IMG/VR virus record: IMGVR_UViG_2526164632_000019
Length of the DNA: 6,905 nucleotides
DNA from: a virus
Lineage: Duplodnaviria > Heunggongvirae > Uroviricota > Caudoviricetes
Direction: 5' to 3' (one strand)
Below the pieces are notes generated by a model. The model was not told the DNA's origin and ran no database searches. It saw nothing but the letters and a program-made list of their open reading frames with translations. Shown piece by piece: positions 1-6,905 of the stretch (positions are counted from its first letter, which is position 1; every line of letters starts with the position of its first letter). Both the position numbers and the translations under genes were made by a program.

Positions 1-113
1 CAAAAACAGTGTTATGGGTGGATTCTCTGTATCCGGCGTTAATTGTTAACTGGTTAACGTCACCTGGAGGCACCAGGCACCACATCACAAAATTCATTGT
101 TGAGGACGCGATA

Positions 114-302
114 ATGGAAACGTTATTACCAAACGTTAATACGTCTGAAGGTTGTTTTGAAATTGGTGTCACTATCAGTAACCCTGTATTTACTGAAGAT
201 GCCATTAACAAGAGAAAACACGAACGGGAGTTATTAAATAAAATATGCATTCTTTCAATGCTGGCCCGTTTACGTCCGATACAAAAAGGATGCTGGCAAT
301 GA
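114..302 (+). CDS. Small hypothetical protein (62 aa) in the prophage early-left region. The reading frame is open back to the window edge, so it may instead be the C-terminus of a longer gene starting upstream of the window.
   Basis: ATG at 114 preceded by GAGGA (102-106) at about 8 nt spacing; stop TGA at 300-302 overlaps the ATG of the next ORF (ATGA overlap). Same strand as the downstream prophage genes. No recognisable motif. Confidence 0.4.
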   Translation: METLLPNVNTSEGCFEIGVTISNPVFTEDAINKRKHERELLNKICILSMLARLRPIQKGCWQ

Positions 303-490
303 ATACAGCATTTGCACTTGTTCTGACAGTTTTTCTTGTTTCCGGAGAGCCAGTTGATATTGCAGTCAGTGTTCACAGGACAATGCAGGAGTGTGTGACT
401 GCAGCAACCGAACAGAAAATTCCCGGTAACTGTTACCCGGTCGATAAAGTTATTCACCAGGATAATAACGAAATCCCGGCAGGTCTTTAA
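299..490 (+). CDS. Small hypothetical protein (63 aa) with a hydrophobic N-terminus (MNTAFALVLTVFLVSG), possibly a signal peptide or membrane anchor, and two Cys residues; common small prophage protein type.
   Basis: ATG at 299 overlaps the stop of the upstream ORF (translational coupling); AGGA at 286-289 upstream. The hydrophobic stretch followed by a polar region with two Cys is read directly from the translation. Start choice between 290 and 299 is uncertain. Confidence 0.5.
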   Translation: MNTAFALVLTVFLVSGEPVDIAVSVHRTMQECVTAATEQKIPGNCYPVDKVIHQDNNEIPAGL

Positions 491-582
491 AACAGTTCCG
501 TAATAAACATCCGGTTTCATTCTTATATGCCAGCAATGGCAGGGATTTGTTCACCATTAAATCTGTAATGAGGTAAGACAAA

Positions 583-3054
583 ATGAGTAAAGTCTTTATT
601 TGCGCCGCCATTCCGGACGAACAGGCAATAAAGGAAGAAGGTGCAGTCGCTGTAGCCACTGCCATTGAAGCCGGTGATGAATGTCGCGCCCGCGCAAAAT
701 TTCACTGGCAATTCCTGGAACATTATCCGGCTGCTCAGGACTGCGCTTATAAATTTATTGTCTGCGAGGATAAACCTGGCATACCCCGCCCTGCCCTCGA
801 TTCATGGGATGCTGAATATATGCAGGAAAACCGCTGGGATGAGGAGTCTGCTTCTTTTGTCCCGGTTGAGACTGAATCCGATCCGATGAACGTCACTTTT
901 GACAAGCTGGCCCCTGAAGTACAGAACGCTGTCATGGTTAAGTTCGACACATGTGAAAACATCACCGTTGATATGGTTATTAGCGCACAGGAATTGTTGC
1001 AGGAAGACATGGCAACATTCGACGGACATATCGTTGAAGCGTTGATGAAAATGCCAGAAGTTAACGCCATGTATCCGGAGCTTAAGTTGCACGCCATTGG
1101 GTGGGTTAAGCATAAATGTATTCCTGGTGCTAAATGGCCCGAAATTCAGGCAGAGATGCGCATCTGGAAAAAACGTCGCGAAGGTGAACGCAAGGAAACC
1201 GGAAAATACACGTCTGTTGTTGATCTCGCCCGCGCCAGAGCCAATCAACAGTACACTGAAAATTCAACAGGAAAAATCAGCCCGGTCATTGCTGCCATTC
1301 ATCGCGAATACAAGCAGACATGGAAAACACTGGATGACGAACTGGCCTACGCTCTCTGGCCTGGTGATGTGGATGCCGGAAACATTGACGGCAGCATCCA
1401 TCGCTGGGCAAAAAATGAAGTTATCGACAACGGCCGCGAAGACTGGAAGCGTATCTCGGCATCAATGCGCAAACAGCCTGATGCCCTTCGCTACGACCGC
1501 CAGACTATTTTTGGCCTTGTCCGTGAACGTCCGATCGACATTCACAAAGATCCCGTAGCACTGAACAAATATATCTGCGAATACCTGACGACAAAGGGCG
1601 TGTTTGAGAATGAAGAAACAGACCTGGGCACTGTTGATGTTCTCCAGTCATCAGAAACACAAACTGATGCAGTGGAAACTGAGGTATCTGATATCCCAAA
1701 AAATGAAACCGCGCCGGAAGCTGAACCATCTGTAGAGCGTGAGGGGCCGTTCTACTTCCTCTTCACCGACAAGGATGGCGAAAAATACGGTCGCGCAAAC
1801 AAACTTTCTGGTCTGGATAAGGCGCTGTCTGCTGGGGCTACTGAAATCACGAAAGAAGAATATTTCGCCCGCAAAAACGGTACATACTCAGGTTCACAAC
1901 AAAATACTGGTGCATCTGACACGACCGCACAACCAGGGCCGGTAAAAGTTACCGCTGACGAAGTAAACAAAATTATGCAGGCAGCCAATATCAGCCAGCC
2001 TGACGCCGATAAGTTACTTGCTGTATCGCGTGGTGAATTTGTTGAGGGGATTAGCGCCCCTAATGATCCGAAATGGGTCAAGGGGATCCAGACTCGCGAT
2101 TCTGTGAACCAGAACCAGCATGAATCGGAACGGAACTACCAAAAAGCGGAACAAAACAGCCCAAATGCGTTACAAAACGAGCCAGAAACGAAACAACCTG
2201 AACCAGTAGTGCAACAGGAACCGGAAAAGATCTGCACCGCCTGCGGTCAGAGCGGTGGCGGCAACTGCCCTGATTGTGGTGCGGTGATGGGTGACGCAAC
2301 ATACCAGGAAATATTCGATGGAGAGAATCAGCCTGAAGTTCAGGAAAATGATCCGGAGGAAATGGAAGGCACTGCGCATCAGCACAAGGAGAACACTGGC
2401 GGCAATCAGCATCATGCCAGCGATAGTGAAACTGGCGAGGCGTCAGATCCCTTAATTAAGGCGAACGGTCATCATAATCTCACATCCACCAGCAGAGCGG
2501 GGATTCATCTGATGATCGACCTTGAAACCATGGGAAAAAATCCCGATGCCCCGATTATCTCAATAGGTGCAATATTTTTCGATCCGCAAACCGGAGATAT
2601 GGGACCGGAATTTAGTAAGACTATCGATCTGGAAACTGCTGGCGGAGTCATTGATCGGGACACCATTAAATGGTGGCTTAAACAATCACGCGAAGCGCAA
2701 TCTGCCATTATGGCCGATGAAATCCCGTTAGATGATGCACTGTTACAATTGCGGGAATTTATCGACGAAAACTCCGGTGAATTTTTTGTTCATGTCTGGG
2801 GAAATGGAGCCAACTTCGACAACACGATTTTGCGCCGTTCATACGAACGGCAGGGGATCCCCTGCCCGTGGCGTTACTACAACGATCGCGATGTACGCAC
2901 AATCGTTGAGCTGGGGAAAGCCATAGACTTCGATGCCAGAACGGCTATTCCATTCGAAGGTGAGCGCCATAATGCACTTGATGACGCCCGTTACCAGGCA
3001 AAATACGTTTCAGCTATCTGGCAAAAACTGATCCCGAGTCAGGCTGATTTTTAA
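583..3054 (+). CDS. Prophage multidomain nuclease (823 aa): uncharacterised N-terminal domain, acidic linkers, CxxC-x8-CxxC zinc knuckle, and C-terminal DEDDh (DnaQ-like) 3'-5' exonuclease domain. Probably the type of protein often annotated as exodeoxyribonuclease VIII-like in lambdoid prophages.
   Basis: Uninterrupted 2472-nt ORF with GAGGT RBS about 8 nt upstream of ATG 583. C-terminal motifs read from the translation: Exo I MIDLETMG (D646, E648; nt 2518-2526), Exo II HVWGNGANFD (D746), Exo III HNALDD (H796, D801; nt 2968-2985). Zinc knuckle CTAC...CPDC at residues 551-566 (nt 2233-2280). It sits immediately upstream of xis-int, where lambda exo and Rac recE lie. Confidence 0.85.
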   Translation: MSKVFICAAIPDEQAIKEEGAVAVATAIEAGDECRARAKFHWQFLEHYPAAQDCAYKFIVCEDKPGIPRPALDSWDAEYMQENRWDEESASFVPVETESDPMNVTFDKLAPEVQNAVMVKFDTCENITVDMVISAQELLQEDMATFDGHIVEALMKMPEVNAMYPELKLHAIGWVKHKCIPGAKWPEIQAEMRIWKKRREGERKETGKYTSVVDLARARANQQYTENSTGKISPVIAAIHREYKQTWKTLDDELAYALWPGDVDAGNIDGSIHRWAKNEVIDNGREDWKRISASMRKQPDALRYDRQTIFGLVRERPIDIHKDPVALNKYICEYLTTKGVFENEETDLGTVDVLQSSETQTDAVETEVSDIPKNETAPEAEPSVEREGPFYFLFTDKDGEKYGRANKLSGLDKALSAGATEITKEEYFARKNGTYSGSQQNTGASDTTAQPGPVKVTADEVNKIMQAANISQPDADKLLAVSRGEFVEGISAPNDPKWVKGIQTRDSVNQNQHESERNYQKAEQNSPNALQNEPETKQPEPVVQQEPEKICTACGQSGGGNCPDCGAVMGDATYQEIFDGENQPEVQENDPEEMEGTAHQHKENTGGNQHHASDSETGEASDPLIKANGHHNLTSTSRAGIHLMIDLETMGKNPDAPIISIGAIFFDPQTGDMGPEFSKTIDLETAGGVIDRDTIKWWLKQSREAQSAIMADEIPLDDALLQLREFIDENSGEFFVHVWGNGANFDNTILRRSYERQGIPCPWRYYNDRDVRTIVELGKAIDFDARTAIPFEGERHNALDDARYQAKYVSAIWQKLIPSQADF

Positions 3055-3069
3055 TGTTCAACCCTAATT

Positions 3070-3095
3070 GCCGCTAACCGTATATAGTTAGCGGC
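3070..3095. repeat. Perfect 9-bp inverted repeat (GCCGCTAAC / GTTAGCGGC) with an 8-nt AT-rich spacer, in the gap between the nuclease gene and the xis-like gene.
   Basis: Read directly: 3070-3078 gccgctaac, spacer cgtatata, 3087-3095 gttagcggc. No downstream T-tract, so it does not look like an intrinsic terminator; more likely a protein-binding palindrome or an RNA hairpin. Confidence 0.5.
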
Positions 3096-3112
3096 GGTTA
3101 TGAGATATAGCT

Positions 3113-3316
3113 ATGAGCAGCTTATTTTTAACCGAAGATGAATTGCTAATATTAACGGGCTGCAAATATGCAAGCCACCAGCGAAAATGGTTAATGGAAA
3201 ACGGGCTTCCGTTCTATACCAATCGTAGTGGCAAACCGATTGTCAGCCGGGAGCTATTTACCTGCAATAAAACTTTACCACCACGCGAGGTAGAGCCGAA
3301 TTTTGGTGCGATCTGA
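3113..3316 (+). CDS. Small excisionase-like / DUF4224-type protein (67 aa) typically found immediately upstream of lambdoid integrases.
   Basis: The motif LTEDELLILTGCKYASHQRKWLMENGLPFYTNRSGKPIV matches my memory of the DUF4224 pattern. Its TGA stop overlaps the integrase ATG (TGATG at 3314-3318), indicating translational coupling. Confidence 0.7.
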   Translation: MSSLFLTEDELLILTGCKYASHQRKWLMENGLPFYTNRSGKPIVSRELFTCNKTLPPREVEPNFGAI

Positions 3317-4340
3317 TGGGAAGACGAAGGAAAAATCCTGAACACGAAAAATTACCTCCAAATGTATACCCAAATAAATATAGTTATGTATGGAAACCAA
3401 CATCCAGAGAATCTGTAACACTAACCGCCATCAAGGATGGTTTAGCTGCTTTATGGAAAAAGTATGAGGAAACTGTAAATAATCGCGATCGTGCAATGAC
3501 ATTCGGTCGCTTGTGGGAAAAATTCCTCGCCAGCGCCTATTACAGTGACCTCAGTCCAAGAACACAAAAAGATTATCTGCAACATCAAAAAAAGTTGCTT
3601 GCCGTATTCGGTAAGGTGCCGGCAGATTCCATAAAACCAGAACACATCCGTCGATACATGGACAAGAGAGGGGAGCAGAGTAAAACGCAAGCCAACCATG
3701 AAAAAAGCAGTATGTCCCGCGTTTACAGTTGGGGGTATGAGCGAGGGTACGTGAAGGGTAACCCATGTGCAGGTGTAAGTAAATTCAAGGCCAAAAACCG
3801 CGAACGATATGTAACCGACAAAGAATACCAGGCAGTATTAAGCGTTGCACCTCTTCCTGTTTTTATCGCAATGGAAATTGCCTATCTGTGTGCAGCGAGG
3901 GTTTCCGATGTGTTATCGCTGAAATGGGAGCAGATTGGAAACGACGGGATCTTTATCCAGCAAGGGAAAACAGGAAAAAACAGATAAAAGCATGGAGTCC
4001 ACGATTACAGGCGGCGATCGAAAAAGCAAAACAGTTACCAACATCCGCCTATGTAATCAGCAATCAATACGGCAACCGATATATGTACAAAGGCTTTAAC
4101 GAAATGTGGGTAGAAGCAAGAAATCGCGCAGGCAAAATTTCAGGTATTTTAACCGACTTCACCTTTCATGATCTGAAGGCGAAAGGAATTTCAGACTATG
4201 AAGGAAGCAGTCGGGATAAGCAACTTTTCTCTGGTCACAAAACCGAGGGGCAAGTGCTAATCTATGACAGGAAGGTTAAAGTTTCACCGACACTTGATGT
4301 CCCGTTACCTGAAAATATTCCAAGAAAATATTCCAAGTAA
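3316..4340 (+). pseudogene. int: Lambda-type tyrosine integrase with N-terminal arm-binding domain, disrupted by a -1 frameshift in an A6 run (3975-3980).
   Basis: Frame A (3316-3987) ends ...IFIQQGKTGKNR*; frame B continues ...KKQIKAWSPRLQAAIEK... to the stop at 4340. Adding one A to the A6 run would join them as ...QGKTGKKQIKAWSP.... The C-terminal box FHDLKAKG...GHKTEGQVLIYDRK carries the catalytic His and Tyr (Y at 4263-4265). The gene lies next to the tRNA-Ser 3' end. Confidence 0.85.
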
Positions 4341-4347
4341 TTCCAAG
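4311..4347. repeat. Tandem direct repeats (AAAATATTCCAAG twice, then TAATTCCAAG) overlapping the integrase 3' end; candidate integrase arm-type binding sites.
   Basis: ATTCCAAG occurs at 4317-4324, 4330-4337 and 4340-4347, about 45-80 bp from the tRNA-Ser 3' end (4393). The position is analogous to the lambda P' arm sites, which overlap the int C-terminus. Confidence 0.45.
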
Positions 4348-4392
4348 TGTGATTTTTGTCACTGACTTAATGATGTATAAGTGATTGAATTT

Positions 4393-4482
4393 TGGCGGAG
4401 AGAGGGGGATTTGAACCCCCGGTGGAGTTGCCCCCACTCCGGTTTTCGAGACCGGTCCGTTCAGCCGCTCCGGCATCTCTCC
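4393..4482 (-). tRNA. serU: tRNA-Ser, anticodon CGA, 90 nt with long variable arm; integration target of the adjacent prophage.
   Basis: Reverse complement reads GGAGAGATGCCGGAGCGGCTGAACGGACCGGTCTCGAAAACCGGAGTGGGGGCAACTCCACCGGGGGTTCAAATCCCCCTCTCTCCGCCA. Acceptor stem GGAGAGA/TCTCTCC, anticodon loop CUCGAAA, 3' CCA encoded. Matches my recollection of E. coli serU and its position next to mtfA. Confidence 0.95.
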
Positions 4483-4575
4483 GTTCAGATGGTTGCCATG
4501 ATGCCAGGAAATTTGGCATTTTAACAGTCCCTGTCCGTGCAATTTTGTTCAAGTGACGAGTTTGCGAGCAAAACG

Positions 4576-5373
4576 ATGATTAAGTGGCCCTGGAAAGTAC
4601 AAGAATCAGCACATCAAACTGCCCTTCCCTGGCAGGAAGCACTATCGATCCCCCTTTTAACGTGTCTGACGGAACAGGAACAAAGCAAATTAGTCACTCT
4701 TGCCGAACGTTTTTTACAGCAAAAGCGGCTTGTTCCTTTACAGGGCTTTGAACTGGATTCATTAAGAAGCTGCCGGATAGCACTTCTATTTTGCCTACCC
4801 GTTCTGGAGTTAGGACTGGAATGGCTGGATGGTTTTCATGAAGTCTTAATTTATCCTGCGCCATTTGTGGTCGATGATGAATGGGAAGACGATATCGGTC
4901 TGGTGCATAACCAACGTATTGTTCAGTCAGGTCAGAGCTGGCAGCAAGGGCCTATCGTTTTGAACTGGTTGGATATACAAGATTCTTTTGATGCTTCTGG
5001 TTTTAACCTGATTATTCATGAAGTCGCTCATAAGCTGGACACCCGTAACGGCGATCGCGCCAGCGGAGTTCCCTTTATTCCGTTGCGTGAGGTTGCTGGC
5101 TGGGAACACGATCTTCATGCTGCAATGAACAACATTCAGGAAGAAATCGAATTGGTTGGCGAGAATGCGGCGAGCATTGATGCTTATGCTGCCAGTGATC
5201 CTGCTGAATGTTTTGCCGTACTTTCTGAATATTTCTTTAGCGCCCCAGAACTTTTTGCTCCTCGTTTCCCTTCATTGTGGCAACGTTTCTGCCAATTTTA
5301 TCAACAAGATCCTTTGCAGAGACTGCATCGCACTAATGATACAGACTCGTTTTCGGCGACGAATGTTCATTAA
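4576..5373 (+). CDS. mtfA: MtfA (YeeI), Mlc titration factor A, a zinc-dependent peptidase-like protein (265 aa).
   Basis: Translation begins [14 protein letters not shown]... and contains the HEXXH motif (HEVAHKLD). Conserved position between serU and asnT as in E. coli K-12. The ORF track starts at an upstream GTG (4537); the ATG at 4576 gives the 265-aa product. Confidence 0.93.
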
Positions 5374-5427
5374 TTAACAACTTTGCAGATTAATTAACCA
5401 ATTGAAATGACTTATGAAATTTAGTGT

Positions 5428-5456
5428 TGACAGACAAGGTACCGCTAAGTAATATG
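5428..5456 (+). promoter_or_regulatory. Near-consensus sigma-70 promoter for asnT (-35 TTGACA, 17-bp spacer, -10 TAATAT, GC-rich discriminator).
   Basis: TTGACA at 5428-5433, TAATAT at 5451-5456, followed by GCGCCCC; the mature tRNA begins at 5474. Typical architecture of a stringently controlled tRNA promoter. Confidence 0.6.
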
Positions 5457-5473
5457 CGCCCCGTTCACACGAT

Positions 5474-5549
5474 TCCTCTGTAGTTCAGTCGGTAGAACGG
5501 CGGACTGTTAATCCGTATGTCACTGGTTCGAGTCCAGTCAGAGGAGCCA
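5474..5549 (+). tRNA. asnT: tRNA-Asn, anticodon GUU, 76 nt.
   Basis: TCCTCTGTAGTTCAGTCGGTAGAACGGCGGACTGTTAATCCGTATGTCACTGGTTCGAGTCCAGTCAGAGGAGCCA. Acceptor stem TCCTCTG/CAGAGGA, anticodon loop CUGUUAA, encoded CCA. Confidence 0.97.
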
Positions 5550-5638
5550 AATTCTAAAAATTCGCTTTTTTAGCGCAATGTCACTGACCTTAGTTGAACA
5601 TTGTTTTTTAACGGATAGCGGGTTTTTAACATCTTAAG

Positions 5639-5669
5639 CGCCCTCGACCTTTATGGTTGAGGGCGTTTT
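5639..5669 (+). terminator. Probable intrinsic terminator downstream of asnT.
   Basis: GC-rich stem CGCCCTCGA (5639-5647) pairing with TTGAGGGCG (5657-5665, one G-U pair), a short loop, then TTTT (5666-5669). Confidence 0.5.
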
Positions 5670-5862
5670 GCTATGAACGCCATCACCATTTTCCCCTCGA
5701 TTATAAAACTTGAGTTATTCAGTAGTCTCCCCTCTTGCAACTCACACCCAAAACTGCCTAACGAAAAGTTATTAATTTTCAATCATATTGCTATCAGGAT
5801 TTACATTTTTTCGCTGTGCTAGAAAGGGCGCATTTATGTTAGCTCGTTCAGGGAAGGTAAGC

Positions 5863-6905
<1,043 letters not shown>

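Follow-up and report, generated by a model that had tools for sequence, protein, structure and literature searches.

A RecE-family scaffold fused to a DexA-like DEDDh exonuclease domain in an annealase-free lambdoid prophage locus

Introduction

SynExo and EATR recombination systems combine a 5'-3' exonuclease of the PD-(D/E)XK type with an annealase of the RecT, Redbeta, Erf or Rad52 type. In the Rac prophage recE is followed by recT, while the order in lambda is gam-bet-exo, with bet before exo; the first-pass annotation of the DNA studied here gave exonuclease followed by annealase for both, which holds for Rac and not for lambda. The function of the N-terminal region of RecE is still described as unknown, yet this region improves linear-linear recombineering (PMC11611040).

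The closest described arrangement is that of phage Tritos, which serves as prototype for the "nuclease only" class of Rec modules (Zheng, Casjens, Davidson, Amundsen & Smith, Genome Res 2025, PMC12315714). In that study the Tritos class has a nuclease, lacks a strand-annealing protein (SAP), SSB and an anti-RecBCD function, and is rich in Chi (21/6 to 7/2 sites); its authors, who used structure prediction, scored the class as lacking a strand-annealing protein. They also describe 3'-5' nucleases of the DnaQ-like type in Rec modules of lambdoid phages, including canonical annealase-bearing modules of some other lambdoid phages such as epsilon34, and leave int-proximal DnaQ genes out of the Rec-module count. 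Since DnaQ-like nucleases can stand beside annealases, as in epsilon34, DEDDh nucleases are not intrinsically annealase-free. Here we describe a locus in which a nuclease gene at the recE position is followed directly by xis and int.

Results

The window, meaning the whole 6,905-nt stretch analysed (IMG/VR record IMGVR_UViG_2526164632_000019), belongs to a defective prophage located at serU. For prophage sequence upstream of the window we used the nearest E. coli relative (L001, 99.9% identical). The genes that matter here are:

114-302, + strand: dicB, cell-division inhibitor (Pfam DicB, E 1.7e-37; NCBIfam CellDivInhibDicB, E 3e-39)
299-490, + strand: ydfD (DUF1482), directly 5' of the nuclease gene (Pfam DUF1482, E 7.8e-25)
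583-3054, + strand: open reading frame of a chimeric nuclease of 823 aa, in which a predicted DEDDh 3'-5' exonuclease follows an N-terminal scaffold of the RecE family
3113-3316, + strand: xis-like gene, DUF4224 excisionase, 67 aa (Pfam DUF4224, E 1.7e-15; PHROG 1266 excisionase, E 4e-21)
3316-4366, + strand: tyrosine integrase, a pseudogene in the window, split into open reading frames 3316-3987 and 3888-4340
4393-4482, - strand: tRNA-Ser (cga), attachment-site end of the prophage (ARAGORN; Rfam tRNA)

dicB is the upstream member of the early-left operon to which the nuclease gene belongs, and ydfD/DUF1482 is the label of the corresponding gene in RefSeq relatives. The open reading frames confirmed the gene order first proposed, with the nuclease ending at 3054 and an xis-like gene from 3113 coupled to int, base 3316 being common to the xis stop codon and the int ATG. 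Loss of 1 nt from a run of A near 3974 has frameshifted int (341 aa in intact relatives), and RefSeq labels int of the nearest relative 'frameshifted'. The 823-aa gene is probably intact and widespread in the early-left operon of Qin/DicA-type lambdoid prophages.

Within the nuclease gene we distinguished the following parts:

583-1617, + strand: N-terminal region, aa 1-345 (YdfE_N PF27430 and YdfE_C PF27432; precomputed Pfam labels on homologues and loci)
1366-2457, + strand: acidic low-complexity segment, aa 262-625, homologous to the non-catalytic part of Rac RecE (BLASTP)
2233-2277, + strand: four-cysteine knuckle C551, C554, C562 and C565 (CxxCGxxGGxCPDCG), common to RecE by alignment
2457-3063, + strand: DEDDh cassette, an exchangeable unit (homology breakpoints against loci L011, L002 and L087)
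2486-2493, - strand: Chi site (GCTGGTGG, sequence match) within the cassette, 30 nt from its left junction
2506-3021, + strand: Rv2179c/DexA-like DEDDh 3'-5' exonuclease domain, aa 642-813 (Pfam PF16473, E 1.5e-66)

PHROG 2082 matched the protein over its full length (positions 1-823 of 823). The scaffold has three parts, namely the YdfE_N/YdfE_C region, the acidic linker and the four-cysteine knuckle. Residues 262-625 aligned to residues 278-591 of K-12 RecE (38% identity, E 6e-59), and homology at the DNA level covered window positions 2007-2456 (76%). The homology ends with RecE residue 591, the point at which the nuclease domain of RecE starts according to a review (PMC11611040). The NCBIfam ExoVIII equivalog (PRK09709) scored 273.3 bits against a cut-off of 1269 and matched only at model positions 271-603 of 877. 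PF12684 (DUF3799; RecE residues ~564-866) had no Pfam match in the 823-aa protein, and phmmer with the RecE C-termini of K-12 and of loci L011 and L012 found nothing in the window. The gene occupies the recE position, as first annotated, but by these comparisons lacks the catalytic domain of RecE or lambda Exo, a DEDDh domain standing in its place. The four-cysteine motif also occurs C-terminally in a D12 Dam methyltransferase that adjoins an EcD-like gene in locus L113.

PF16473 matched aa 642-813 with 223.9 bits (cut-off 27) over profile positions 2-177 of 177. The catalytic residues D646, E648, D746, H796 and D801 are all intact, and their columns were invariant in an alignment with T4 DexA and an EcD-like protein, the latter recovered via a published primer sequence. 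The nearest solved structure in a PDB sequence search was 8KEL/8KEN (E 6.5e-6), that of T4 DexA (PMC12153337). Family membership, from which both the polarity and the DNA substrate are drawn, suggests that the enzyme would degrade DNA 3' ends. Of the DexA residues for 5hmC recognition, W152 corresponds to Tyr in the window protein and D169 lies in a region that does not align reliably; the equivalent of D90, a tetramer residue, is Asp. The EcD-like protein has Ala at the D90 position and keeps Trp at W152. PADLOC gave a weak, generic DEDDh match (E 1e-5). The Pfam family name and RefSeq protein names read "3'-5' exoribonuclease domain-containing protein", and stand-alone homologues of the domain (190 aa) adjoin xis/int in YeP2 and SKA5, in the manner of accessory genes.

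In each of four complete phage genomes (mEp460_ev081, HannyBb, PhiR42_1 and Tritos) the gene likewise measures 2472 nt. All five copies compared have 823 codons without stops, with dN/dS of 0.10-0.55 across all three regions, and the gene is under purifying selection. Selection was strongest in the N-terminal region (omega 0.10-0.15), for which AF2 gave a poor model.

N-termini that are nearly identical (89-95%) are joined to either of two 3' cassettes. Homologues whose N-termini are 89-92% identical carry either PF16473 or PF12684, and recT lay directly downstream in all three PF12684 (RecE-type PD-(D/E)XK) loci examined, such that the presence of recT co-varies with nuclease type. The left swap junction falls at window 2456/2457, in frame after codon 625: the window and L011, which has the PD-(D/E)XK plus RecT form, are 94.7% identical over 1-2456 and unrelated past 2456. 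The right junction lies at ~3063, 8-10 nt beyond the stop codon, and homology to two loci with other xis/int modules (L002 and L087) stops at 3062-3064. On an evolutionary scale, the DEDDh cassette replaces a unit of RecE PD-(D/E)XK 5'-3' nuclease domain, recT, lar and ydaC carried by prophages that are otherwise 95% identical. The DEDDh cassette was present in 4070 of 5426 complete E. coli genomes (75%), in up to 7 copies per genome, and the RecE C-terminus plus recT cassette in 1750. DEDDh domains occurred on at least 6 N-terminal scaffolds with <50% mutual identity, and PD-(D/E)XK domains on twelve others.

The gap between the nuclease gene and xis (3055-3112, 58 nt) had been singled out for a 9-bp perfect palindrome and as a place to look for a deletion scar. 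The palindrome is present, as the core (GCCGCTAAC / GTTAGCGGC) of an inverted repeat with 14-nt arms at 3065-3078 and 3087-3100 (86% complementary, 8-nt loop). No scar was found in the gap, the left swap junction lying at 2456/2457 instead; the gap consists of two features:

3052-3062, + strand: conserved 11-nt junction TAATGTTCAAC (stop codon plus 8 nt), common to all DEDDh-type loci
3065-3100, + strand: GC-rich hairpin 5' of xis (inverted-repeat and RNA-folding analysis)

TAATGTTCAAC was identical in 7 of 7 distinct gap sequences covering five xis/int module types, and the equivalent place in RecET-type loci carries TAATAATCAAC or AAAAATCAAC. Folded as RNA, the hairpin region reached -21 kcal/mol (z = -3.5; 0 of 200 shuffles equal), and no terminator-like or promoter-like pattern was found in the gap. 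Every xis/int module has a hairpin of different sequence in this position, as do RecET prophages downstream of ydaC. In a subfamily of four hairpin sequences, 95.5% of cells were paired and both sides had changed in 4 of 11 pairs. The gap sequence was identical in all eight loci that share the xis/int module of the window. The hairpin belongs to the xis/int module and is not a deletion scar.

We searched for an annealase in the window and its relatives. None lies between the nuclease gene and xis, which is the next gene, or upstream in the window, where dicB and ydfD are found. The order nuclease, xis, int recurs in the four complete phage genomes, whose annotations list no annealase and have no bet, recT or erf between nuclease and xis. 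Among IMG/VR contigs, the DEDDh form was directly followed by xis or int in 64 of 64 informative cases with five module types, and RecT, Bet, Erf, the PD-(D/E)XK domain, Lar and DUF1187 were found in 0 of 80 contigs (flanks up to 7 kb). A phmmer panel (two RecT, Bet, Erf, Exo, the RecE C-terminus, Gam and Abc2; all positive controls recovered) gave no match at E <= 10 in the window or in six-frame translations of L001, mEp460_ev081, HannyBb and PhiR42_1. Accordingly, neither SynExo/EATR component was detected in the window, L001, these three genomes or the 80 contigs. When the ten largest early open reading frames without assignment were scanned with Pfam and PHROG, none matched an annealase, GamL, MuGam or SSB family. 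From repressor to nuclease the early-left operon holds only open reading frames of up to 204 aa, mostly <125 aa. Early open reading frames without assigned function occur in HannyBb (204 aa), mEp460_ev081 (120 and 448 aa) and L001 (231 and 215 aa), and one of these could be an unrecognised annealase. RecT or Bet could also act in trans from co-resident prophages, RecET being present in 1750 of 5426 genomes.

The Tritos copy is 95% identical over window positions 1-3062, in the order dicB-ydfD-nuclease-xis-int. Three complete relatives gave Chi counts of 7/2, 5/2 and 4/2, and the 24 kb of L001 that are prophage gave 10/2. In mEp460_ev081 Chi occurs 9 times in total, against 1.4 ± 1.25 expected; 0 of 100 shuffles reached 9, and the excess in the relatives is mostly on the late-gene sense strand. 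Chi also lies within the nuclease gene of mEp460_ev081, HannyBb, PhiR42_1 and Tritos, at what gene coordinates suggest is the same codon position.

Discussion

The nuclease-only arrangement is ordinary and already described as the Tritos class, and an annealase-free nuclease is in all likelihood the normal state of this phage type and not the outcome of a deletion. The first-pass annotation offered two possibilities, loss of the annealase or a nuclease working alone; the second was upheld, in the sense that no phage-encoded annealase accompanies it in the four complete phages or 64 of 64 contigs. Its premise that such an exonuclease implies an annealase partner did not hold, the domain being of the DEDDh 3'-5' type and not the PD-(D/E)XK 5'-3' type that pairs with annealases.

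The 823-aa protein can be read as a non-catalytic RecE-family N-terminal scaffold fused in frame to what would be a DexA/Rv2179c-type DEDDh 3'-5' exonuclease. An annealase would pair with a 5'-3' nuclease that leaves 3' tails, whereas a 3'-5' enzyme would yield no such substrate, and the DEDDh version would therefore come without an annealase and need none. Homologous recombination may be left to host RecBCD/RecA at the abundant Chi sites, as the correlative evidence of Chi counts suggests. The exonuclease may trim 3' tails, letting RecBCD load, or alternatively have another role at DNA ends or in nucleotide recycling, as for T4 DexA. The occurrence of DEDDh domains on at least 6 diverse scaffolds and of PD-(D/E)XK domains on twelve others supports a speculative proposal, unlikely to be correct as it stands: the RecE-family scaffold might be a targeting platform that brings interchangeable nuclease 'warheads' of opposite polarity to one DNA-end substrate or host partner, the DEDDh version replacing RecET as a RecBCD helper that blunts 3' tails for loading on Chi-rich phage DNA.

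Two readings would keep an annealase in the history or genome of the phage. Local deletion of a recT- or bet-type gene between nuclease and xis might be expected of a prophage whose int is frameshifted, that is, decaying elsewhere, and recT does occupy this place in prophages 95% identical upstream. Such recent decay is nonetheless extremely improbable, given an identical gap in all eight loci with this module, the same gene order in four complete phages and 64 of 64 contigs, a left junction inside the nuclease gene and outside the gap, a hairpin that RecET prophages have too, and purifying selection on the nuclease gene. An annealase encoded elsewhere, or one of a new family hidden among early genes without assignment, is a very unlikely reading: several early open reading frames lack an assigned function and sequence comparison detects remote annealase families poorly, but RecT, Bet and Erf had no match at E <= 10 in six frames of L001 and three complete phage genomes, the largest unassigned frames had no annealase PHROG or Pfam match, the repressor-nuclease interval holds small frames only, and Zheng et al. 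(PMC12315714), who used structure prediction, scored the Tritos class as SAP-negative.

Other readings give the domain a task outside recombination. It might be an EcD/HREX-type defence or exclusion nuclease against modified DNA of superinfecting T-even phages or, relatedly, a DexA-like scavenger of host DNA. EcD protects against T4 (Kang et al. 2025, PMC12153337), the domain shares its Pfam family with the EcD-like protein (39% identical) and has 27.7% identity to DexA, stand-alone homologues adjoin xis/int in YeP2 and SKA5, and such int-proximal DnaQ genes fall outside the Rec-module count of Zheng et al. (PMC12315714). However, the equivalent of DexA W152, needed for 5hmC DNA, is Tyr, the D90 equivalent is kept (Ala in EcD) with D169 not alignable, the gene sits in a repressed early-left operon and not under a lysogenic promoter, the PADLOC match is weak and generic, and the domain is fused to a RecE-family scaffold on which it alternates with a recombination cassette; we consider this reading improbable. 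Action on RNA, such as trimming or degrading phage or host transcripts, is suggested by the exoribonuclease activity of Rv2179c and by the Pfam and RefSeq names, but is highly improbable, as DNA is the substrate of T4 DexA and EcD, the exonucleases nearest in sequence among characterised relatives, and a RecE scaffold carries the domain in alternation with a DNA recombination cassette.

The value of these results is mainly corrective. Many records name the protein "exodeoxyribonuclease VIII", which implies a 5'-3' enzyme of the RecE type and an annealase partner, neither of which is true, and the literature searched yielded no experimental characterisation of the 823-aa gene. Two cassettes alternating on a 95% identical scaffold amount to a natural experiment on the role of the RecE N-terminal region, and their alternation could also show how annealase-free, Chi-rich lambdoid phages recombine.

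Among known systems, the domain shares PF16473 with EcD/HREX (Kang et al., NAR 2025, PMC12153337), the EcD-like protein being 39% identical over 183 aa. EcD differs in standing alone (189 aa) next to a Dam methyltransferase, and in Ala at DexA D90 and Trp at W152 where the window protein has Asp and Tyr. With T4 DexA it shares the DEDDh catalytic residues and, by family, the character of a phage-encoded 3'-5' DNA exonuclease without an annealase partner; identity is 27.7% over aa 643-776, and DexA is a stand-alone protein of 227 aa with extra loops, has no RecE-type scaffold and carries W152 in place of Tyr. M. tuberculosis Rv2179c, the founder of PF16473, is a stand-alone bacterial exoribonuclease; the window domain fits the family profile end to end, while Rv2179c did not appear at E 0.01 in the PDB sequence search with that domain.

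Lambda Red, SynExo and EATR systems share with the window a lambdoid early-left operon and a nuclease with DNA ends as its presumed substrate, and differ by their 5'-3' PD-(D/E)XK exonuclease, annealase and Gam, all absent from the window. Rac RecE/RecT has the same early-left position just 5' of xis/int, RecE 278-591 is homologous to window aa 262-625 including the four-cysteine knuckle, and near N-terminal relatives (89-95%) of the window protein bear a RecE-type nuclease domain and recT. In contrast to Rac, the window lacks the PD-(D/E)XK domain, recT, lar and ydaC, its catalytic domain is DEDDh with the opposite expected polarity, and the YdfE_N-type stretch of ~260 residues at the N-terminus of its protein bears no relation to K-12 RecE. 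From the Tritos class nothing substantive differs: the window copy has a different xis/int module, a frameshifted int and a defective prophage, and relatives of the window match the class on every count, with a nuclease, no SAP, SSB or anti-RecBCD function, and an excess of Chi.

Prophage setting and gene order

The window is E. coli chromosome carrying the int-proximal end of a Qin/DicA-type lambdoid prophage at tRNA-Ser(cga), with mtfA, tRNA-Asn and yeeJ downstream of the prophage end, and it matches E. coli FDAARGOS_1059 at 99.9% identity over 1-6620. Prophage sequence upstream of the window was taken from the nearest complete genome and not from the source. An ORF check reproduced all coordinates of the first-pass annotation, and xis and int overlap by one base, which ends the xis stop codon and begins int.

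Features of the window (coordinates, strand, identity)
114-302, plus, dicB (62-aa DicB)
299-490, plus, ydfD/DUF1482 (63-aa YdfD)
583-3054, plus, nuclease ORF (823 aa)
2486-2493, minus, Chi site in the DEDDh cassette (the exchangeable 3' part of the nuclease gene), 30 nt from the in-frame junction 2456/2457
3055-3112, gap of 58 nt between nuclease and xis
3113-3316, plus, DUF4224 excisionase-like gene (xis)
3175-3182, minus, Chi site in xis
4393-4482, minus, tRNA-Ser(cga), the prophage insertion site

As first noted, no annealase lies in the 58 nt between the nuclease and the next gene, the DUF4224 xis. The accompanying claim that an annealase follows the exonuclease in both lambda and Rac holds for recE and recT of Rac, the only one of the two with such an order; the lambda transcript runs gam-bet-exo. 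Since bet is upstream of exo in lambda, the upstream side of the nuclease also needed checking, and within the window it contains no annealase, only DicB and YdfD.

Int is a pseudogene (3316-4366) in which a 1-nt deletion in an A-run near 3974 leaves ORFs 3316-3987 and 3888-4340, so that the prophage is probably unable to excise by its own means; relatives with the same xis/int module encode an intact 341-aa Int. yeeJ, annotated as frameshifted in the relative too, is interrupted from 6621 by an IS21-family element, colinearity with FDAARGOS_1059 stopping at 6620, and an istA N-terminus occupies 6706-6903 (NCBIfam transpos_IS21, E 2.8e-15). The dicA/dicC immunity region is present in this prophage (18124-20302 of L001, the nearest E. 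coli relative). DicF sRNA is annotated just upstream of dicB in phage Tritos (locus L120, 7635-7687), and the window starts just downstream of the expected dicF position.

A chimeric nuclease

The gene had been taken for an Exo/RecE-type exonuclease, and its catalytic domain instead belongs to PF16473, the Rv2179c-like 3'-5' exonuclease family: aa 642-813 match the whole Pfam profile (E 1.5e-66, 224 bits; cut-off 27 bits). The NCBIfam exonuclease VIII equivalog was matched only at model positions 271-603 of 877, with 273 bits against a cut-off of 1269. In direct protein comparison aa 262-625 align with residues 278-591 of K-12 Rac RecE (38% identity across the alignment as a whole and far more in its final ~150 residues; DNA-level homology to recE at window 2007-2456), and no alignment to this RecE was found past aa 625, or RecE residue 591, which is about the start of the RecE nuclease domain. 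That domain comprises residues 564-866, and the N-terminal part is described as "of unknown function" (review, PMC11611040). Rac-SA53 recE, tried as a comparator, proved to be of another sequence type and barely similar, and K-12 Rac was used instead. By sequence, the nearest solved structure to the DEDDh (DexA/DnaQ-type 3'-5' exonuclease) domain is 8KEL/8KEN, which is T4 DexA (PMC12153337), and the active site is intact: D646, E648, D746, H796 and D801 do not vary when the domain is aligned with DexA and with an EcD-like homologue from E. coli. The 823-aa protein is almost certainly, as judged from these alignments, chimeric, with a DEDDh 3'-5' exonuclease joined to a non-catalytic scaffold of the RecE family.

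Three parts make up this scaffold: a region to which the precomputed Pfam labels YdfE_N and YdfE_C apply, a linker that is acidic and of low complexity, and a four-cysteine knuckle (C551, C554, C562, C565). An AlphaFold2 model of aa 1-345, built on an alignment of 17 sequences that are 87-100% identical, had a mean pLDDT of 43.5 and a pTM of 0.32. Five copies of the nuclease gene, taken from differing module contexts, all have exactly 823 codons and are stop-free, with pairwise dN/dS of 0.10-0.23 over aa 1-345, 0.26-0.55 in the linker region and 0.20-0.36 in the DEDDh domain. Values below 1 in all regions, together with the constant length, indicate that the gene is maintained under purifying selection and is not debris.

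The motif CxxCGxxGGxCPDCGxVxGDATY (window 2233-2310, aa 551-576) is common to the nuclease scaffold and RecE. It recurs as the C-terminal tail of a Dam DNA methyltransferase of the D12 class (4468-5445, minus strand, of locus L113) whose gene adjoins that of an EcD-like exonuclease. Presence on both the RecE scaffold and a Dam methyltransferase indicates that the motif is a small mobile module. A gene-fission link, raised by a match to the N-terminus beside the EcD-like gene, was rejected: the match was only this motif ending the methyltransferase.

Two alternative cassettes on one scaffold

We searched aa 1-625 against a collection of 5.8 billion proteins and found that the matches, 89-100% identical, end in either of two C-terminal domains, PF16473 in the majority (812-826 aa) and PF12684/DUF3799, a RecE-type PD-(D/E)XK domain, in 17 of the 120 top matches (880-1058 aa). 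The presence of recT co-varied with nuclease type: in all three PF12684 contigs examined a RecT gene starts at or just past the nuclease stop codon, and behind it come lar (identified in each of these loci with phmmer), ydaC (DUF1187), xis and int. One prophage locus of this form, L011, has a dicB-ydfD context like the window's, is 94.7% identical to it over nt 1-2456 and is unrelated from 2457 on, and in DEDDh-form relatives with other xis/int modules the match to the window ends at 3062-3064. These two limits of homology delineate an exchangeable unit at window 2457-3063, with a left swap junction in frame directly after the shared ...ETGE(A/V)xDP(L/V)I and a right one 8-10 nt beyond the stop codon; in L011 its counterpart, of ~2.1 kb, holds the PD-(D/E)XK domain, recT, lar and ydaC. 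The annealase goes together with the 5'-3' nuclease domain and is tied neither to the N-terminal scaffold nor to the operon position.

Only 239 scaffold relatives were found among 1.84 billion cluster representatives. A DEDDh domain is carried by 6 of the 49 relatives of at least 480 aa, on scaffolds less than 50% identical to each other, and a RecE-type domain by 12 (phmmer; Pfam gave PF12684 in 11 and PF06630 in 19). The occurrence of DEDDh domains on six divergent scaffolds and of RecE-type domains on twelve indicates that the scaffold-plus-warhead design is recurrent. One cluster representative, P0202 (703 aa), joins a RecE-linker-like N-terminal part and a RecT domain (residues 516-703) in a single ORF; the fusion may be genuine, or may be an artefact of assembly or of a frameshift. 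DEDDh homologues of 190 aa that stand alone, 55-60% identical to the window's domain, are encoded immediately before xis/int in the Yersinia phage YeP2 (L121, 4995-5567) and in the e14-like phage SKA5 (L122, 4995-5568), the SKA5 gene being in two pieces under the annotation 'exodeoxyribonuclease VIII'; this position suggests how fusion to the RecE scaffold could have arisen.

Prevalence of the annealase-free arrangement

Scanning IMG/VR with the N-terminus yielded 80 loci, and a DEDDh domain was present in 78 of the 78 that reach the C-terminal coding region, two contigs ending earlier. In all 64 loci running at least 150 nt past the stop codon the next recognisable gene was xis or int, distributed among five module types (mEp460-type 50, the window's DUF4224/serU type 6, lambda Exc/Int-like 5, and two further types 2 and 1). 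RecT, Bet, Erf, a RecE-type nuclease domain, Lar and DUF1187 were found in none of the 80 loci, with flanks of up to 7 kb. Four complete phage genomes (mEp460_ev081, HannyBb, PhiR42_1 and Tritos) carry a 2472-nt copy of the nuclease in the same gene order, with no annealase annotated. A phmmer panel of two RecTs, Bet, Erf, lambda Exo, the RecE C-terminus, Gam and Abc2 gave no match at E <= 10 in stop-to-stop segments of at least 50 aa from the window, the 44-kb E. coli relative, mEp460_ev081, HannyBb and PhiR42_1, while all positive controls were recovered, and PHROG and Pfam placed none of the ten largest unassigned early ORFs in an annealase family.

Across 5426 complete E. coli genomes, the DEDDh cassette occurred in 4070 (8111 places) and the RecE C-terminus plus recT cassette in 1750 (1841 places), which makes the annealase-free form the more frequent one in this species. 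The DEDDh family is common in phages too, with homologues detected by tblastn in 1633 of 50,697 phage records.

A hairpin at the module boundary

The 9-bp perfect palindrome noticed in the gap is present as the core of a longer inverted repeat with 14-nt arms (3065-3078/3087-3100, 86% complementary) and an 8-nt loop, and as RNA the gap region folds at -21 kcal/mol (z = -3.5; 0 of 200 shuffles fold as well). No T-run follows the hairpin, a scan of 2900-3400 gave no terminator-like or promoter-like patterns, and Rfam returned only two tRNAs in the window and no curated family for the hairpin. The stop codon and the same 8 nt form TAATGTTCAAC in every DEDDh-type locus (in the window from 3052), followed by a GC-rich hairpin of -19 to -25 kcal/mol whose sequence varies by xis/int module. 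A comparable hairpin stands between ydaC and xis in prophages of the RecET type, K-12 Rac among them, with TAATAATCAAC or AAAAATCAAC ahead of it.

Such a short junction and GC-rich hairpin stood just upstream of xis in every module examined (window 3052-3100; L010 4317-4428; L011 5587-5670; L004 4450-4535). When all seven hairpin variants were aligned with MAFFT and folded with RNAalifold, the consensus was weak (-2.7 kcal/mol), since the two hairpin families are out of register in that alignment. In an in-register subfamily, small at four sequences, 95.5% of cells pair under a hand-written structure (slid controls 17-73%), with changes on both sides in 4 of 11 pairs. Junction and hairpin together resemble a conserved element that delimits or regulates the integration module; our guess would be that the hairpin helps to process or stabilise the transcript running into xis.

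Of the two explanations first offered for the missing annealase, local loss predicts a deletion scar in the gap, and the search there found the conserved junction and hairpin instead. Being module-specific and also present in RecET prophages, the hairpin belongs to the xis/int module, marks the module boundary on the right of the nuclease cassette and is no deletion scar, which contradicts local loss. The alternative, a nuclease working without a phage annealase, is borne out by the gene order of the 64 informative contigs and four phage genomes; the comparison with intact relatives, a check set beforehand, gave nuclease then xis/int in all of those with the DEDDh form. The original observation was therefore correct and its interpretation half right, and absence of an annealase is very probably the normal state of DEDDh-type phages.

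Relation to the Tritos class and possible roles

Among the classes of recombination module that Zheng, Casjens, Davidson, Amundsen and Smith distinguished in 325 lambdoid phages (Genome Res 2025, PMC12315714), their Table 1 gives a Tritos-prototype class of four phages that have a nuclease but no strand-annealing protein, no SSB and no anti-RecBCD function; Chi sites of the class are reported as 21/6 to 7/2 (top/bottom strand). The Tritos copy is 95% identical to the window over 1-3062, with like gene order. We counted Chi sites at 7/2 in mEp460_ev081, 5/2 in HannyBb, 4/2 in PhiR42_1 and 10/2 in the 24-kb prophage part of the nearest E. coli relative, in agreement with the counts reported by Zheng et al. 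The total of 9 in mEp460_ev081 is in excess of the 1.4 +/- 1.25 expected, and 0 of 100 shuffles reach it. The Tritos copy and the matching Chi counts make the window's arrangement an instance of this class as tabulated. Both window Chi sites are oriented with the late-gene sense strand (0.15 expected in the window), and Chi also occurs inside the nuclease gene of all four phages. The annealase-free arrangement is ordinary, widespread and already described, and a modest interest is left in the roles of enzyme and scaffold.

From what is known of its family, the window enzyme would act on DNA with 3'-5' polarity. A 3'-5' exonuclease strips, and does not make, the 3' tails onto which annealases load, so no annealase would be expected to accompany it. 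Host 3'-5' single-strand exonucleases are credited with blunting 3'-tailed ends so that RecBCD enters. The phage enzyme might likewise blunt such ends for RecBCD entry, and we regard this RecBCD-helper role as possible rather than probable. Recombination in DEDDh phages may be handed to host RecBCD/RecA, as Zheng et al. argue (PMC12315714). Other candidate roles of the enzyme are action on RNA, a DexA-like scavenging of host DNA and an HREX-like defence function. Searches of the literature on Rv2179c with phage, ydfE with prophage, and PF16473 found nothing useful, and PADLOC gave only a generic DEDDh match for the window protein.

Kang et al. (NAR 2025, PMC12153337) showed 3'-5' DNA exonuclease activity for DexA and, for its stand-alone E. 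coli homologue EcD, cleavage of 5hmC DNA together with protection against T4. EcD is not the window's C-terminal domain: the published primer sequences lead to a stand-alone protein of 189 aa with Ala at position 78, as in PMC12153337. HREX-type specificity is not established for the window protein, since it has Tyr at the position of DexA W152, keeps Asp at that of D90 and does not align in the region of D169. At the level of the whole domain, the EcD-like protein is a PF16473 member 39% identical to the window's domain, and T4 dexA shares 27.7% identity with it (tblastn).
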